Source: a virus
Strand: one strand, 5' to 3'
Length of the DNA: 40,118 nucleotides
UHGV virus genome: UHGV-0211833
Part shown: piece after piece, positions 16,958 through 23,146 of the stretch
Position numbering within the stretch: position 1 is the stretch's first letter
How the letters are laid out: every line of letters begins with the position of its first letter
The notes under the pieces: model-generated
What the model saw: the letters and a program-made list of their open reading frames with translations, nothing else
Told to the model about the DNA's origin: nothing
Database searches by the model: none
Made by a program: the position numbers and the translations under genes

Positions 16958-17700
16958 GTGAAAGACTTATAGACATTGAAGATGGCTTGATAAAGCCTTT
17001 ACTGGCTCTTCTCTTAAGAGACAAGACGACAGGCGAAAATATAATTTGGGCTACTGACACGCATCCTGTTTTTATGGATGAAAAAGACATCTTGCTGCAT
17101 AGCGAAGCGATAAGGCCAAGGGTTGAAAAATCTTTAGATGAGCAAAAGACGAGGACGAAGAAGAAGGCAGAAGTCTTTACACCTACCTGGGTATGCAATC
17201 AAATGATTGACAATATCGACAAAACAGCAAAGCGAAAGACGTGGAAAGAATATGTTGATTCGAGAGTGCTGGAAATCACTTGCGGCGAAGCACCTTTTCT
17301 CGTACAGAGATACGATACCGTTACAGGGGAACCAATACCTTTAAAAGACAGGGCAGGGCTTCTTGACCGCAAACTGAAAGCCATCGGCAAAAACACATGC
17401 ACAAGAAAAGAATGGGTTGAATGGGCGATCAGGGCGTTTGAATCGTCATACGGTTACGAGTATCAAGGCGACAATCTTCTTATAGCAAGGATCAACTTGC
17501 TGCTAACGTTTGTTGACTACTATAAAGATCGTTGGGGAGAAGACCCAGACAAAATACTTTTGCGGCTCATCACAAATAGAATCGTATGGAACGTGTGGCA
17601 GATGGACGGGTTAAAGAACACAATCCCATTTAGAGAAGACAGATGCAGAATACGTGATTGGCGCAAACGCAAAACGGTTATTTTTATGGAGGAACAGTGA
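16954..17700 (+). CDS. Partial (SAM-binding half) N6-adenine methyltransferase, 'restriction endonuclease subunit M'-like
   Basis: LL.DKTT..NIIWATD, KAEVFTP.W.C..M (motif X), LEITCGEAP (motif I), YGYEYQGDNLLIAR. No NPPY motif. Confidence 0.7.
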   Translation: MSERLIDIEDGLIKPLLALLLRDKTTGENIIWATDTHPVFMDEKDILLHSEAIRPRVEKSLDEQKTRTKKKAEVFTPTWVCNQMIDNIDKTAKRKTWKEYVDSRVLEITCGEAPFLVQRYDTVTGEPIPLKDRAGLLDRKLKAIGKNTCTRKEWVEWAIRAFESSYGYEYQGDNLLIARINLLLTFVDYYKDRWGEDPDKILLRLITNRIVWNVWQMDGLKNTIPFREDRCRIRDWRKRKTVIFMEEQ

Positions 17701-17720
17701 GTGATCTTGTTTGGGAGACA

Positions 17721-17870
17721 TGGTAAAATATAGGTATAGAAAAATTACCTTTTATTTTTTATAAATTATTTATTGGTGTAACCCCGTAAAACTGATCTTT
17801 GAGTGAGTGAGTGGTTAATCGGGCGATTGATTGACGAAAACATGGCTTAAAACAAGCCATGTTTTTTATT
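17721..17870 (+). ncRNA. Putative small RNA unit, copy 1 (extended -10, conserved core, terminator)
   Basis: TGGTAAAAT, TCTTTGAGTGAGTGAGTGGTT core, AAAACATGGCTT/AAGCCATGTTTT terminator. Duplicated at 18837-18995. Confidence 0.5.
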
Positions 17871-18497: not shown

Positions 18498-18842
18498 TTG
18501 AATTTGAGAAAAGTCAACGCAACAAAAACTGCAAGACAAGTAAAAGTGTTTCTGAGGGAAGATTACCCCGTTTTGCTGGCGAGAGCCGGTGTTTCGCATG
18601 AATTTTTGGAATCAGAAGAAGAGGGCACTGAATTTCTCAATCAAGTAAAAGAAGCGTATTTCAAGTGTTTGCCGTTGCATAAACAGATTATCTCGTTACG
18701 GCTCAAACGAACGACCGATTACAACATCGCAAAAGAAATCGGCTATGAGATTACGCAAACGAGGCAATTCAAAATTGCGGCATACGTGGAATTTGCAGAA
18801 CGCTTAGCGGCATTGAGTGATCTTGATTTGAGAGTGTGGTAA
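18498..18842 (+). CDS. ArpU-family late transcriptional activator
   Basis: KTARQVKVFL..DY, IAKEIGYE..Q....K..AYVEFAE, DLRVW. Last gene of the early/middle block. Confidence 0.75.
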   Translation: MNLRKVNATKTARQVKVFLREDYPVLLARAGVSHEFLESEEEGTEFLNQVKEAYFKCLPLHKQIISLRLKRTTDYNIAKEIGYEITQTRQFKIAAYVEFAERLAALSDLDLRVW

Positions 18843-18995
18843 AATATAACTAAATTAAATAAAATTTAAAACACAAAAATTCTTTTTATTGTTATTAGTG
18901 GAACCTTGTCAAACTGGTCTTTGAGTGAGTGAGTGGTTGATCGGGTTTTGATTGATAAAAAAACACGGCCTGTTTTAAGGACCGTGTTTTTTATT
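18837..18995 (+). ncRNA. Putative small RNA unit, copy 2
   Basis: TGGTAAAAT, identical 21-nt core at 18918-18938, AAAACACGG/CCGTGTTTT terminator. Confidence 0.5.
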
Positions 18996-19010
18996 TTCCT
19001 TGTTTTTCGC

Positions 19011-19314
19011 TTTCTTTCAGGATTTCTGATTTTGAATTTTTGGATTTCAGATTTCCTAATTTTGAATTTTGGATTTTCTGATTTTAAAAAATGGTTCCTC
19101 CTGGGCGCCGATTATCGAAATCAGAAGCGGCGATTATCAGTATTAGTTTTATACTTTTCCTTTTATTCTTTTTTATTCTTTTTCTTTTTTATTTTATTTT
19201 TTGCCGTCTTGAAATGCTGCACAAAAAATGCAAAATTTTTCATTTTTTGAATTCCTGATTTTGAAAAATAGGCTTGACGAGCTTGTAAAAAGCCAATTTA
19301 GAAGCGGCGATTAT
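19011..19314. repeat. T-tract-rich degenerate repeat region
   Basis: Repeated GATTT(C/T)TGATTTTGAATTTT-like units, AGAAGCGGCGATTAT at 19123 and 19300. Confidence 0.7.
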
Positions 19315-19451: not shown

Positions 19452-19673
19452 TTACAGAGCTTTTAACTTTTCATCGATTGCATCCCTCAACGCTTGCAGG
19501 TCTTCCCGATAGCGGTCAACACCGACTGCAGCTACTGCCTCAACAGCTTTAGCTGTGGTCATGCGTGCAAAAGCACGGGCGGCCGATTTCTGTTTTCTGT
19601 AATACACTTGCTCGGGGTTGCTGGCATCGTATTTCTGTACTGCTTTAAGTTGTGCTTCGCTTGTTTTTTTCAT
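19452..19673 (-). CDS. Small putative regulator (TSEAQ.KA..KY type), last gene of the leftward island
   Basis: 73 aa, AGGAG RBS, TSEAQLKAVQKY...KSAARAF...DL..L...I.EKL. Confidence 0.7.
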   Translation of the reverse strand: MKKTSEAQLKAVQKYDASNPEQVYYRKQKSAARAFARMTTAKAVEAVAAVGVDRYREDLQALRDAIDEKLKAL

Positions 19674-19691: not shown

Positions 19692-20621
19692 TTACTTAAC
19701 TTTATGAATTGTTGTTGGCAGATCGTCAGGGGAACTCGCGTTAATGTAAACAGGTTCAATCCACTTCAGGATACGCTCACGATCTGCACTGTCTCGTTTT
19801 CCCGTCCAAAAATGCGACCAGTGGCCACGTCTTAAATGCGGGCGGGGGCGTGCGTGCTGCTTATGATCGCCACCTTTGCGCTGCGTTTTTGCAGCGTATG
19901 AGCGATTACGCTTAATCGTGGCGCCTACACGTACCCCAACATCCCAACGTCTAACCGGGCACTTATCGGTTGCTTTCGGTGTCTTTCCGGGTTGTGTGGT
20001 GGTCGGTCTGCGCTCTTGCACGTCAGCGTTAGCAGCACATAGGTATAACAACAACTGCACTATCAGTTTAGATGCTCTTGTCGTATTGCTATTTGGCGAG
20101 CGGACAAACTCAGCGCCATAATGTCGGGCTTCTTCAATACTTAGTTTTTCGTTTTCTTCAAACGTTCTAGCATCCAAGTGAATATCCAACTGCCCGAACG
20201 CCAGAGTGTCTACGGACACAAACAGGCACTTGATCACGTCTTCTTTTTTCAGGGCAAAGAATCCGTCCATGGGTGTGTCTTGCGGGCCTGTCAGTTTAAC
20301 GGGCATGCAGATGTATGCACACTTAAACGGCAGGCGTTTCAACGTGTCGCTGGCAACCGCTAAATCGGTTTGATCGCTCAAAGTCTCAAATAGTGTCTTG
20401 TCAAAGTCGTATATAGCTTTGGCATCTTTTAGCCATGCGCCCTCAAAAACGTTGGTAAGCGCATAGCCCAACGCATTAAAGCCTTCAGCATTGGTACACT
20501 CTTTTATGATATCCAGTGATTGTTGGACGTCTTGCACTGTTGACAATTCCGGCACAACGGCTAACAGTTTATCATACCGCTTTTGCAACTCAAGCGGTAT
20601 GAGTTTTCGTTTCCTCTTCAT
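19692..20621 (-). CDS. AcrVA2/FinQ-family protein (anti-CRISPR homolog)
   Basis: Collinear motifs GAW....IY.FD, LP..C.Y, GFFA, LLYLC....D, G.R.G, RPH.RRGHW..FW.G and W..PV.IN match AcrVA2 as recalled. Confidence 0.8.
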   Translation of the reverse strand: MKRKRKLIPLELQKRYDKLLAVVPELSTVQDVQQSLDIIKECTNAEGFNALGYALTNVFEGAWLKDAKAIYDFDKTLFETLSDQTDLAVASDTLKRLPFKCAYICMPVKLTGPQDTPMDGFFALKKEDVIKCLFVSVDTLAFGQLDIHLDARTFEENEKLSIEEARHYGAEFVRSPNSNTTRASKLIVQLLLYLCAANADVQERRPTTTQPGKTPKATDKCPVRRWDVGVRVGATIKRNRSYAAKTQRKGGDHKQHARPRPHLRRGHWSHFWTGKRDSADRERILKWIEPVYINASSPDDLPTTIHKVK

Positions 20622-20682
20622 TTAAATCACCTCTTACGCTTGTTTTTCCGGATCCGTCAGTTCCTTCGACCGTGATAAGCAT
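20590..20682 (-). pseudogene. Truncated thymidylate-kinase-like P-loop fragment
   Basis: GAGG RBS plus MLITVEGTDGSGKTSV, then runs out of frame into the acr start. Confidence 0.55.
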
Positions 20683-20707
20683 TTTTTAAAACCTCGTTTC
20701 TTTAATG

Positions 20708-20740
20708 AAAAAGGCTAGCCGCACATGACCAGCCTTTTTT
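20708..20740. terminator. Bidirectional terminator
   Basis: AAAAAGGCT...AGCCTTTTTT. Confidence 0.65.
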
Positions 20741-20754
20741 AATCGTGTTTTTTC

Positions 20755-20997
20755 TTAGCCTTCAATGTATTTAGAATGGTTATAATCGTTACCATCTTCA
20801 TCAACCATGTAAAATTGATCTTCATCAGCGATTAACTCATCGATTGTAAGATTATATTCTTTGCTTTCACGTTTTAACATCTCTACATATTCTTTTTCAG
20901 GTATGATAACGCCCGTGTTGCGGTCTTTATAAAAAACAGTTGAGTCGATTTCGATGTTTGTTCCTTCATAGTATTTTTGTTCTTGTTCTTTTTTCAT
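20755..20997 (-). CDS. Small acidic hypothetical protein (Acr candidate)
   Basis: 80 aa, D/E rich, RBS present. Confidence 0.7.
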   Translation of the reverse strand: MKKEQEQKYYEGTNIEIDSTVFYKDRNTGVIIPEKEYVEMLKRESKEYNLTIDELIADEDQFYMVDEDGNDYNHSKYIEG

Positions 20998-21074
20998 GAT
21001 TCCTTACCTCTTGTCTTTCTTTTTTATTATCTTCCTTACAAGTATATAATAACACGGTATATAAGGGGCTATTT

Positions 21075-21152
21075 TTAATCTTCGTCTTTAAAAAACGGCA
21101 ACAACACACATAGCACGATTGCCGCCATTAGGTAGCCTGACAATTTAATCAT
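21075..21152 (-). CDS. 25-aa single-TM peptide
   Basis: MIKLSGYLMAAIVLCVLLPFFKDED, GAGG RBS, overlaps the upstream stop. Confidence 0.45.
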   Translation of the reverse strand: MIKLSGYLMAAIVLCVLLPFFKDED

Positions 21153-21906
21153 TATCGGCTTCCTCCTCTTCGTCTTCCTCGTATTCCCATAAATCAGCAA
21201 CCGGATCACCACCGGCTAAAAGTTTGTAGCGCATTTGATCATATGCATCGGCATCCGTCAAGCTTGCGAAGTGGCGCCCGTTTTCATCGTAAAAATCAAG
21301 CGTCTGTTCAACTGCGCTAGTTTCGATGCGGTAGTTGTCAAAATCAAAAAAGTTGCAGTAGTCCAGGATCGAACTTATTTCGGAAAGAAGCAGCTGTTCA
21401 TAAATGCAGCCTACACGAAGCGGGTCATCTCCCCAGTAGTGAGCACGGTTAAGCGTGACCGTCAACATATCATCTTTGTAGACGTACTCGCCGACTTTTA
21501 AATAAACTGATTCGTCTTCCAATTCGGCATAGACGTTTTTTTCATCAATCCCGATGTGAAGTTGTGAATCGATCGTTAATTTTTCTTCGGCTTCTTCTTC
21601 GGTCAGTGTTTCATAAACTGACTCAAAATGCGGATGCGGATTGAGCCAGTAGCCTTTTTCTTCGGCATCGTCTTCGTCGCCGATTTCGTCAATATCGAAG
21701 TTATCAATGAAGCCAGCTTTCAAGGCGTTTTCGAGAAGCTCCTTGATGTTGTCCCCGCCAAGATCTTCCCAATCGGCTCGGTTTTCCTCGCTGACGTGCA
21801 TCGTGCTGCCTGCATTCTCGCCTATGTCTTGCCATAAATCGCAAGCCTGATTCCATGTGTGCGCACCAAGAACTACGTTATTAACTTTGATTGCGTAATA
21901 TTTCAT
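21145..21906 (-). CDS. Extremely acidic hypothetical protein (DNA-mimic or Acr candidate)
   Basis: 253 aa dominated by D/E and aromatic residues, AGGAGG RBS, directly downstream of hammerhead 2. Confidence 0.8.
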   Translation of the reverse strand: MKYYAIKVNNVVLGAHTWNQACDLWQDIGENAGSTMHVSEENRADWEDLGGDNIKELLENALKAGFIDNFDIDEIGDEDDAEEKGYWLNPHPHFESVYETLTEEEAEEKLTIDSQLHIGIDEKNVYAELEDESVYLKVGEYVYKDDMLTVTLNRAHYWGDDPLRVGCIYEQLLLSEISSILDYCNFFDFDNYRIETSAVEQTLDFYDENGRHFASLTDADAYDQMRYKLLAGGDPVADLWEYEEDEEEEADND

Positions 21907-21940: not shown

Positions 21941-22004
21941 GGCCTGTCTCATCGGTGCAGGGTGGCCATGTCCTACAGACGGGGCATCAGAACCCCGTTT
22001 CGAC
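21941..22004 (-). ncRNA. Type II hammerhead ribozyme (CCGAUGA core variant)
   Basis: GUC-GAAA-CGGGG/CCCCG-UC^-UGUAGG/CCUGCA-CCGAUGA-GAC. Loop I UGGCC can pair with the 3' GGCCG (pseudoknot). Confidence 0.85.
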
Positions 22005-22414
22005 TAGTATTCAATGAATTTGATTTCGAGACTGATTTCAGCGTCAATTTCTTTTTCATTCCAAAGTTCGTTCACTTTGGAATTGGCCTCGTTGTAGCGA
22101 TCAAAGCGCCCAACCTCGTTGCAATTCTCATCTTCGACAACGAAGATAGGGCGGGCCTCGATGATCGGATCGCCTACATATCCATCTTTGCCGATCTCGT
22201 ACAGGGTATCATATGAGATCGTGTGCGTGGTTAACACACACATAGCATGTCGCTTGAACCAAGCTTTCACTTGGCCAAGTGTGCCGGTCGGCGTTGCCCA
22301 GTCCGAATCGCATTCATTGACCGGGTCATTAATGCGTCCTGCATCGAATTCCTCGAAAGAAACTGTAGTTGTTTCCATCATCAAATCTTCTTCACCGTAA
22401 ATCTTTTTCGTCAT
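22004..22414 (-). CDS. Acidic hypothetical protein (136 aa)
   Basis: Start re-placed at MTKKIYGEE behind AAGGAGG. Flanked by both hammerheads. Confidence 0.75.
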   Translation of the reverse strand: MTKKIYGEEDLMMETTTVSFEEFDAGRINDPVNECDSDWATPTGTLGQVKAWFKRHAMCVLTTHTISYDTLYEIGKDGYVGDPIIEARPIFVVEDENCNEVGRFDRYNEANSKVNELWNEKEIDAEISLEIKFIEY

Positions 22415-22431
22415 TTTAATTTTCCTCCTTA

Positions 22432-22492
22432 AGGCTATCTCATCAGTGCACGGCGCCTGTTCCGTACAGACGGGAATTTCTTCCCGTTTCGA
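22432..22492 (-). ncRNA. Type II hammerhead ribozyme (canonical core)
   Basis: UC-GAAA-CGGGAA/UUCCCG-UC^-UGUACGG/CCGUGCA-CUGAUGA-GA. Loop I AGGC pairs with the 3' GCCU. Confidence 0.9.
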
Positions 22493-22496
22493 ATTT

Positions 22497-22526
22497 ATTA
22501 TAAGTCTTGACTTAGACAAATGTCAA
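22497..22526 (-). promoter_or_regulatory. Sigma-A promoter with spacer operator
   Basis: TTGACA-18-TATAAT, TAAGTCTTGACTTA at 22501-22514. Confidence 0.85.
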
Positions 22527-22535
22527 GCGCTTTTT

Positions 22536-22736
22536 TTAATTTGTTTTAGGAAAGTTCCTATATCCCTGAATGTACCAGGTAGCGTCGCCATCCTTTTTAT
22601 AGGCTGACCAGTTCCAGCCGTAAATACCGGCATTGTAGCCGACTTCTTTATATCCTTCGGCGAAGGTGTCTACCGTGAGGGGCAAGGTTACAACCTTACC
22701 GATGATGTCTTTTCTTGTTAACTTTGCTTTCTTCAT
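22536..22736 (-). CDS. Small hypothetical protein
   Basis: 66 aa, AAAGGAAG RBS, own promoter, GYNAGIYGWNW motif. Confidence 0.75.
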   Translation of the reverse strand: MKKAKLTRKDIIGKVVTLPLTVDTFAEGYKEVGYNAGIYGWNWSAYKKDGDATWYIQGYRNFPKTN

Positions 22737-22764
22737 TTTGATTACTTCCTTTCTTTATGACTTA

Positions 22765-22793
22765 AGTATAAGTCGCGACTTAGATAATATCAA
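22765..22793 (-). promoter_or_regulatory. Sigma-A promoter with spacer operator
   Basis: TTGATA-17-TATACT, TAAGTCGCGACTTA at 22769-22782. Confidence 0.85.
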
Positions 22794-22800
22794 CTACTTT

Positions 22801-22995
22801 TTAATTTTTTTCATCGTCTCGGTCGATGACGAGTAAAGCGATGATTATAGCGGCTAGCATGATCAGCCGACCTTGACTCGTGCGCAACAGATAGAAATTC
22901 AACTGTCCGATGTACGCCATCAGGCAATCAAATATAAATTTGAGAAGGTAGCCAAAGTTAACTGCCTTTTCGATTACGAACCACTTCAGACTCAT
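22801..22995 (-). CDS. Small membrane protein
   Basis: 64 aa, hydrophobic C-terminal helix, AAAGGAAG RBS, own promoter. Confidence 0.6.
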   Translation of the reverse strand: MSLKWFVIEKAVNFGYLLKFIFDCLMAYIGQLNFYLLRTSQGRLIMLAAIIIALLVIDRDDEKN

Positions 22996-23028
22996 TCTTC
23001 ATTACTTCCTTTCGTTCTTTATGGTTTA

Positions 23029-23057
23029 AGTATAAGTCTTGACTTAGAGAAAGTCAA
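23029..23057 (-). promoter_or_regulatory. Sigma-A promoter with spacer operator
   Basis: TTGACT-17-TATACT, TAAGTCTTGACTTA at 23033-23046. Confidence 0.85.
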
Positions 23058-23146
23058 CAGCTTTTTGAAAAAATCTTCTGTCTTTTTTCTGTTATAAAAA
23101 CGATAAGCGTTAACTTATATATCTTTTATAGTTGTGTATATAGGAA

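Follow-up and report, generated by a model that had tools for sequence, protein, structure and literature searches.

The window, the whole 40,118-nucleotide stretch of DNA analysed here (UHGV virus genome UHGV-0211833), carries the genes of a temperate cos-type siphophage, with an integrase, a CI-like repressor, replication functions, a late activator, an HNH protein, terminase, and head and tail proteins. Its lysin is closest (55-56%) to those of Lactobacillus/Lacticaseibacillus phages. A cassette on the reverse strand, from about 23060 to 19450, occupies the space between the late activator and the HNH gene. It has three consensus promoters, followed by small genes without a known family, several of them strongly acidic. 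Promoter P1 (23029..23057, minus strand) precedes a 64-aa open reading frame (ORF; 22801..22995, minus), and P2 (22765..22793, minus) precedes a 66-aa ORF (22536..22736, minus) whose stop codon lies 10 nt ahead of the -35 box of the third promoter, P3; neither protein belongs to a known family. Behind P3 come a type II hammerhead ribozyme (HHR1), a 136-aa acidic ORF, a second hammerhead (HHR2) and a very acidic 253-aa ORF (21145..21906, minus; 65 D+E, 16 K+R), again of no known family. No terminator-like site was found on the minus strand between 23057, at P1, and 21218, and P1 and P2 are the likely sources of RNA that reads through into HHR1. A scan of the window for tRNA and tmRNA genes found none.

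All three promoters share a palindromic operator-like site, AAGTC-NN-GACTT. The window has three exact copies, one for each cassette promoter (22502..22513, 22770..22781 and 23034..23045), and every palindrome ends on the first base of its -10 box, that of P3 filling part of the spacer and overlapping the first -10 base. The number of copies is not by itself significant at one mismatch (17 of 100 shuffled sequences reach three), so that it is the exact match and the identical -10 position that give these operators their weight.

The gene that closes the cassette encodes a 73-aa helical protein (19452..19673, minus; phrog_2277). Of 16 loci surveyed, two end before this gene, and in one no operator was seen; in all 13 that have both, the five operator types go with the five alleles of the terminal protein without exception. 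Since the operator tracks the allele while the genes between them vary, the 73-aa protein is likely to be the repressor of the cassette promoters; linkage by descent could also give this pattern. Within the survey, which includes L125-L138 and L143, two alleles with a slight difference in the middle helix pair with operators distinguished by a single base in each half-site. The protein is modelled as a confident four-helix fold (pLDDT 89.6), with a best Z of 4.6 among unrelated helical chains; Foldseek gave no match, and searches by family and by fold gave no known Aca. Searches with this model neither favour nor disfavour a DNA-binding role. Operator and 73-aa protein together are likely to form an undescribed repressor-operator series of an anti-defence cassette.

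Near the cassette end is an AcrVA2-like gene of 309 aa (19692..20621, minus; phrog_6160), which brings a homologue of a known anti-CRISPR family into the cassette. Its product matches AcrVA2 (PDB 7ci1) with a phmmer E-value of 4.5e-12 and keeps the C-terminal RPHxRRGHW stretch; PF26125 is found on 120 of 120 homologues among those listed, and the ESM Atlas score is 0.98. Among 115 candidate stretches from GTDB genome contigs there was no relative. AcrVA2 homologues are described, in the part of the study available, as widespread on mobile elements and mostly without Cas12a (bioRxiv 10.1101/2022.11.29.518452). The gene content suggests that this is likely an anti-defence cassette, with its target left open by the usual lack of Cas12a beside AcrVA2 homologues.

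Several other features were noted in and around the cassette. The block 20590-21085 (minus) holds a gene for an acidic protein of 80 aa, which has a promoter-like site of its own, a terminator-like hairpin (20734-20717) and a 30-aa frame starting MLITVEGTDGSGKTS, which we take to resemble the N-terminus of a thymidylate kinase; the block also stands ahead of the AcrVA2-like gene in L125, L126, L128 and L138. A conserved 25-aa hydrophobic frame, possibly a small membrane peptide, lies over the stop codon of the upstream gene (about 21074-21151, minus, in the window; 5880-5954 in L136; 5878-5952 in L137). Outside the cassette, a motif of 49-54 nt that contains GAGTGAGTGAGTGG and has a hairpin close by occurs in two copies about 1.1 kb apart (17695-17867 and 18811-18979); these flank the dUTPase and late-activator genes and may serve in regulation or recombination. 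A non-coding sequence between the cassette and the late activator (18987-19273) is strand-biased and of low complexity, contains short imperfect repeats and is kept in L001. Two non-coding stretches of L001 (4570-4700 and 6255-6315) lie at gene boundaries where other cassettes carry ribozymes. They comprise a 120-nt leader, which presumably contains a BoxA-like word, and a GC-rich 55-nt spacer ahead of a ribosome-binding site (RBS); neither stretch matched Rfam at E 1.

The hammerhead ribozyme HHR1

HHR1 occupies 22432..22492 on the minus strand. In the direction of transcription it comprises U11.2/C11.1 (22492-22491); G12-A13-A14-A15.1, that is GAAA (22490-22487); a 6-bp stem III closed by a GAAA tetraloop (22486-22481 with 22476-22471); the triplet G-U-C (22471-22469), in which U22470-C22469 correspond to U16.1-H17; a 7-bp stem I with an 8-nt loop (22468-22462 with 22453-22447); and the CUGAUGA core (22446-22440). 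A 2-bp stem II (22439-22438 with 22491-22492) follows, and AGGC in loop I (22458-22455) can form a 4-bp pseudoknot with GCCU in the 3' tail (22435-22432). The conserved hammerhead core (C3-U4-G5-A6-N7-G8-A9, G12-A13-A14-A15.1 and U16.1-H17) is complete, and three helices of 7, 2 and 6 bp surround it, with the G10.1-C11.1 pair in place. The topology is that of type II, in which loops close stems I and III and stem II is open, and the loop I/3'-tail pairing has the at least four pairs of such pseudoknots. Cleavage is predicted between C22469 and U22468.

The initial annotation had proposed a minus-strand type II hammerhead with every core element, cleavage at 22469/22468 and a pseudoknot between loop I and the 3' tail. 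Each of these elements is where it was placed, and the covariance-model check that had been suggested gave a match: in a 6-kb search with laxer filters, RF02276 (Hammerhead_II) aligns over its full length to 22429-22494 with 39.8 bits (E 1.2e-5), above its gathering cut-off of 37 bits. A scan of the whole window in the faster gathering mode gave no match. A hammerhead descriptor matched the window twice, at HHR1 and at 22001-21949, and 60 dinucleotide shuffles gave 0.033 loose and 0 strict matches per window.

Folding of the 64-nt HHR1 segment yields stems III and I at -19.8 kcal/mol (z -2.56), a value reached or bettered by 4 of 200 shuffles. In the 321-nt context of a read-through transcript, the thermodynamic model gives pairing probabilities of 0.90-1.0 for stem III and 0.65-0.84 for stem I. 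For stem II the model probability is 0.0, implying that this stem relies on tertiary contacts that the model ignores. When HHR1 was aligned with seven relatives chosen by the likeness of stem I, 93.1% of the 144 cells were paired, against 22-56% in slid controls; these figures are not to be read as probabilities, because the aligned sequences are related and the structure was taken from one of them. Five of the 18 pairs have changed on both sides, two of them in the pseudoknot, and all four helices are touched. Judged by its sequence, HHR1 is a real and ordinary type II hammerhead, with an intact core and with stems and pseudoknot that covary.

Against named phage records, the ribozyme gave a single match, of 66 nt, in a Roseobacter phage, and the ribozyme pattern gave none among GTDB genome contigs. 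On the plus strand, stem III (22468-22489) scores as a terminator-like hairpin that may stop antisense RNA; it could be a chance occurrence, with 5.2 such sites expected in the region. Sequencing runs with the sequence included no listed RNA run, and four runs gave no coverage of 22200-23100; neither outcome bears on expression.

The junction with promoter P3

The promoter that had been noted ahead of the ribozyme is borne out: P3 (22497..22526, minus), TTGACA-18-TATAAT, agrees with the consensus at 12 of 12 positions, and its -10 box lies 6 nt from HHR1. Where, then, does its transcript begin? Transcription starts favour a pyrimidine-purine step about 7 nt from the -10 box. Twenty-four of 25 distinct promoter-like sites in the cassettes, from which we draw the start-site prediction, have such a step 7 nt past the box, the exception being a poor match. 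The 10 nt that follow the P3 box contain a single step of this kind, C22491|G22490. The P3 transcript is thus predicted, and is likely, to start on G22490, which is the catalytic G12 of the hammerhead. In the pseudoknot hammerhead, as described in the text available of PMC11300833, G12 is the general base and pairs with A9, and the G10.1-C11.1 pair adjoins it.

RNA started on G12 lacks the 5' strand of stem II and would therefore be likely to cleave itself poorly. Stem II would be present in the DNA and, if this start is right, in read-through RNA only. The initial annotation had suggested that a local start might clip the second helix (stem II here); the rule followed by 24 of 25 promoters and the lone C22491|G22490 step strengthen that suggestion, the start itself still being a predicted one.

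Could P3 RNA be cut all the same? Hammerheads that lack helix II (minizymes) are generally less active but are sometimes comparable (PMC544870, in part), so P3 RNA might still cut. All transcripts would then be processed, those of P3 included, either through an earlier P3 start or because the pseudoknot replaces stem II, and HHR1 would be a plain constitutive trimmer of 5' ends. Besides the comparable minizymes and the predicted nature of the P3 start, a close relative in L146/L147 (the same as L133/L134) lends this some substance; a promoter and some 24 nt of leader precede it, its stem II has 3 bp and a 101-aa gene follows, which makes promoter-proximal cutting plausible within the cassette family. 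An earlier P3 start, however, would have to fall on a pyrimidine at 5-6 nt, C|G12 being the sole pyrimidine-purine step at 10 nt or less from the -10 box, and minizymes keep a covalent A9-G12 link that would be absent from a transcript starting at G12. We regard cutting of all transcripts as unlikely.

The downstream gene and the ribosome-binding site

The RBS AAGGAGG (22424..22430, minus) follows the ribozyme closely. The pseudoknot strand had been described as ending directly at it; the two are indeed adjacent, with one base, U22431, between them. The gene slot behind HHR1 is filled in the window by a 136-aa ORF (22004..22414, minus; ATG at 22414), which is acidic, as had been stated (29 D+E against 13 K+R). 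Its product had no match in PHROG, Pfam, NCBIfam or PADLOC; there are six close homologues, three of them of 227-231 aa, and the best ESM Atlas score, 0.80, serves as a lead only. In L001 the 136-aa sequence forms the end of a 231-aa ORF, with no HHR1 present, and HHR1-type ribozymes were found ahead of four different genes. A 171-aa frame (22519-22004) that would run from a TTG through HHR1 into the 136-aa gene was rejected: the TTG lies inside the promoter spacer, without a Shine-Dalgarno (SD) sequence upstream.

The closeness of pseudoknot and RBS raises the idea of a translational switch: paired with loop I, GCCU would leave the RBS free, and folded back as CCUU/GAGG it would hide it, with cleavage or the choice of start site tipping the balance. 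The cut product of the window does fold a CCUU/GAGG hairpin in a pseudoknot-free model, where the last four SD bases are no more than 13-27% unpaired; when GCCU is kept in the pseudoknot, all seven SD bases are 91-98% unpaired. In the relatives, too, AGGAGG is partly paired in the pseudoknot-free model. The hairpin is weak, however (-2.1 kcal/mol), and needs an extra A that is unique to the window. The three relatives that were folded (L143, L146 and L148) form a different weak structure, so that the conserved SD-hiding alternative fold of a translational riboswitch is kept in 0 of 3, and no ligand domain was seen in HHR1. Nor is the spacing special: in the comparison set described below, 14 of 50 hammerheads have an SD no more than 2 nt from the pseudoknot end (a few negative values stem from misplaced pseudoknots), which makes the abutment in HHR1 ordinary. 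The distance ranges from about 0 to 36 nt and is 20 nt in HHR2. Cleavage also offers no obvious trigger, we infer, because loop I and the tail share one RNA before and after the cut. Together with the four different downstream genes and the copy of the 136-aa sequence that has no HHR1, these observations leave the earlier proposal that folding or cleavage could tune translation of the 136-aa gene unsupported. The case for HHR1 as a translation switch is weak, and we think the balance mechanism very unlikely.

The second hammerhead, HHR2 (21941..22004, minus), lies 490 nt downstream of HHR1. It was found by the descriptor and matches RF02276 with 33.8 bits (E 4.5e-4), below the gathering cut-off of 37. 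Its stem II, of 3 bp, shares bases with the stop codon of the 136-aa ORF, and cleavage is predicted after 21978. The core is CCGAUGA, and the U4C change that this represents lowers activity in vitro (PMC3088659, in the text available). HHR2 has the usual order of stop codon, ribozyme and RBS, and HHR1 and HHR2 flank the 136-aa gene in the manner of clustered prophage hammerheads, here in a phage context. Ribozymes of the HHR2 type are also present in L001/L137, L135, L136 and L143, behind different genes.

Comparison with other phage hammerheads

A pattern derived from the ribozymes of the window found 123 loci (133 matches) in 9 of the 64 parts of IMG/VR (about 920 stretches estimated). After five matches with short flanks had been dropped, the remaining 128 fell into 59 clusters. 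At most 10 nt separate the hammerhead from the stop codon of an upstream ORF in 46 of the 59 (shifted controls, 2-4 of 58-59), a layout that is a common feature of the set and not a defining one; 50 of 59 stand ahead of an SD and an ORF. The pseudoknot has at least four pairs in 51 of 59, and a 2-bp stem II occurs in eight. HHR1 departs from the stop codon-ribozyme-RBS layout in that it has no ORF stop within 10 nt and a promoter at 6 nt. A sigma-70 type promoter (at least 10/12) within 60 nt was found in 0 of the 59 clusters, by a test that is blind to other types of promoter. The unusual feature of HHR1 is its promoter junction only.

Further pattern scans for unrelated fusions of a promoter to G12 found none. 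One match was of the stop-codon type, one was a contig already known, and the 32 promoter-led matches included no hammerhead; such scans miss variants, because spacer or stem lengths and exact boxes are fixed. The genes behind the 50 comparison hammerheads encode one ArdA, three DUF932, three HTH and four other proteins, and 39 have no Pfam family; this tally has no control set, and we claim no anti-defence enrichment from it. One unrelated phage (L142, 900-1560) has a tandem array of three type II hammerheads that are nearly identical, and a stop codon precedes each of them.

Related cassettes and the history of the junction

The 14 viral loci with an AcrVA2-like gene occupy two genome positions, and their middle genes are shuffled. 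Most lie behind the lysin; in L136 and L137 the cassette is reversed next to the HNH and terminase genes. A hammerhead occurs within 6 kb upstream in five of the 14 cassettes and is absent from the other nine, implying that the ribozyme is dispensable for the cassette.

Two other contigs repeat the junction of -10 box, 6 nt and G12, namely L136 (also present as L141, L148 and L149) and L143; the promoter spacer is 17 or 18 nt long. The gene behind it encodes 132 aa in L136 and 89 aa in L143, compared with 136 aa in the window. Rfam at E 0.05 did not report the fused copies of L136 and L143. HHR1 differs from them in three and two of 71 columns, respectively, all in loops or in the spacer before the RBS, while the neighbouring genes differ at 13/201, 61/765 and 21/195 positions (6.5-10.8%). 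This low divergence points mildly to selection.

In one contig of run X10, the start of the 136-aa gene and an HHR1 stem I are combined with a stem III of the HHR2 type and a stem II of 3 bp, behind a TAA; this ribozyme (window position 22471) is likely to be a recombinant. Since relatives show forms with a leader, with a stop codon and without HHR1, the form fused to the promoter looks derived, and the ribozyme appears to move with the leader and not with the gene. Most likely, the promoter-G12 junction arose in one lineage by loss of the usual upstream gene or leader, and the three close relatives in which it is seen may share it by recent descent.

Such a history would also suit a ribozyme that is no more than a passenger, a former gene-boundary module stranded at the promoter by a deletion, with little effect on expression, and kept through recent descent or as a sequence for gene swapping. 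The nine cassettes that have no hammerhead accord with this, as does the confinement of the fusion to one lineage, with none among the comparison clusters or the promoter-led matches and the one remaining match of the stop-codon type; the X10 contig fits exchange between ribozyme halves. On the other hand, the differences among the three fused copies all spare the core, the stems and the pseudoknot, albeit with only two or three per pair. We judge a passenger to be quite unlikely.

Proposed role of HHR1

How might a ribozyme work that shares its first catalytic base with a promoter start? With slightly more confidence than doubt, we propose that HHR1 heads the gene slot and cuts read-through mRNA from P1 and P2 after C22469, and that P3 RNA, which would start on G12 without stem II, cuts poorly. 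Cutting of read-through RNA is proposed because no terminator-like site was found on the minus strand between P1 and the ribozyme and because stems III and I form in the modelled 321-nt context. After infection or induction, before the 73-aa protein accumulates, P1, P2 and P3 would fire together. RNA from P1 and P2 would cross the P3 region, fold the full ribozyme and split at 22469/22468, with G12 as general base, the 2'-OH of G8 as acid and the pseudoknot holding stems I and II. The downstream piece would have a 5'-OH and a first base paired in stem I, would carry the pseudoknot and would present an open AAGGAGG. P3 would add primary transcripts, uncut or slowly cut, that share stem I, the pseudoknot and the RBS and are 22 bases longer. 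Any gene in the slot would thus be read from a near-identical structured leader, separate from the genes upstream. HHR1 would mark a boundary for processing rather than sense a signal, giving the downstream mRNA a fixed, hairpin-capped 5' end.

Cutting need not stabilise the mRNA, because RNase J1, for which a 5'-OH can be a point of entry, degrades the 5'-OH product of the glmS ribozyme in B. subtilis; in Bacilli, mRNA is stabilised by a blocked 5' end or a strong SD (both points from the available text of PMC3997798 and PMC11780869). A stronger version of the proposal holds that the choice of start site gates the ribozyme, RNA from a repressor-controlled P3 remaining uncut and triphosphorylated and read-through RNA being cut to a 5'-OH, pseudoknot-capped form, and that the whole is a selected natural insulator, with a standard leader for interchangeable anti-defence genes. 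That much we consider a credible but fairly unlikely extension.

Relation to known systems

Self-cleaving RNAs placed between promoter and RBS fix the 5' end of the mRNA in synthetic insulators of the RiboJ type. HHR1, in contrast, is natural, and would act on read-through RNA and not on that of the adjacent promoter; its insulation is putative. Operons of acr and aca genes follow a recognised logic of strong promoters, inverted-repeat operators and a small terminal repressor. The present cassette resembles these operons and the AcrVA2/FinQ family (bioRxiv 10.1101/2022.11.29.518452, in the part available) in its strong promoters with inverted-repeat operators, its small, variable, acidic genes, its terminal protein that tracks the operator and its AcrVA2 homologue with a C-terminal HxR stretch. 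It differs in that the 73-aa protein matched no known Aca in searches by family and by fold, and the anti-CRISPR activity of the cassette is putative.

Type II hammerheads that flank prophage genes have been known since 2011. Perreault et al. (PMC3088659) describe, in the parts of the text available, type II hammerheads with a pseudoknot, 2-bp stems II and prophage clusters that flank single genes of changing identity, ardA among them. Three such clusters cleave, and clustered prophage hammerheads were active in vitro and, when cloned in E. coli, in vivo. HHR1 shares with this type (RF02276) the topology, the core, the short stem II, the pseudoknot of at least four pairs and the clustering round single prophage genes. 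It differs in following a promoter and not a stop codon, with a predicted start on G12, a layout not found in the main text of that paper through part of its discussion. The closest parallel in gene context is the triple cluster round ardA in Agrobacterium tumefaciens (PMC3088659, in part), which likewise flanks a gene of anti-defence type in a mobile element and which cleaves in vitro and in E. coli. Here, however, the AcrVA2-like gene serves as the marker and is found about 1.8 kb downstream, beyond the terminator-like hairpin at 20734-20717, and the genes that adjoin the ribozymes have no family.

Three type II hammerheads are active in cells of Desulfovibrio vulgaris, as detected by cyPhyRNA-seq (PMC8782182, in part). 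Like HHR1 and HHR2, they lie by hypothetical or phage-like genes, two of them close together; the available text describes no promoter overlap for them. The glmS ribozyme of Bacillus subtilis (PMC3997798, in part) offers a parallel in a Firmicutes mRNA, since self-cleavage in the 5' leader leaves a 5'-OH on the coding piece, as is predicted for HHR1. Cleavage of glmS is gated by a ligand and leads to decay by RNase J1, whereas HHR1 lacks a ligand domain and would yield a product whose first base is paired in a hairpin. We found no report of natural hammerheads in anti-CRISPR operons, or of a start on G12, in literature mostly outside subscription journals, and the alignments of 2011 may hold such cases; the hammerhead used in PMC10651486 is, in the text available, an engineered one.

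What the many phage hammerheads do for their phages is still unproven (PMC3088659 and PMC8782182, in the parts available). The present locus is a convenient test case, since near relatives have the promoter on G12, a normal leader, a stop codon or no ribozyme at all. If the RNA of the adjacent promoter is left uncut and read-through RNA is cut, the position of a start site would be a simple gate for a ribozyme, and ribozyme processing would be tied to the early burst of anti-defence genes.
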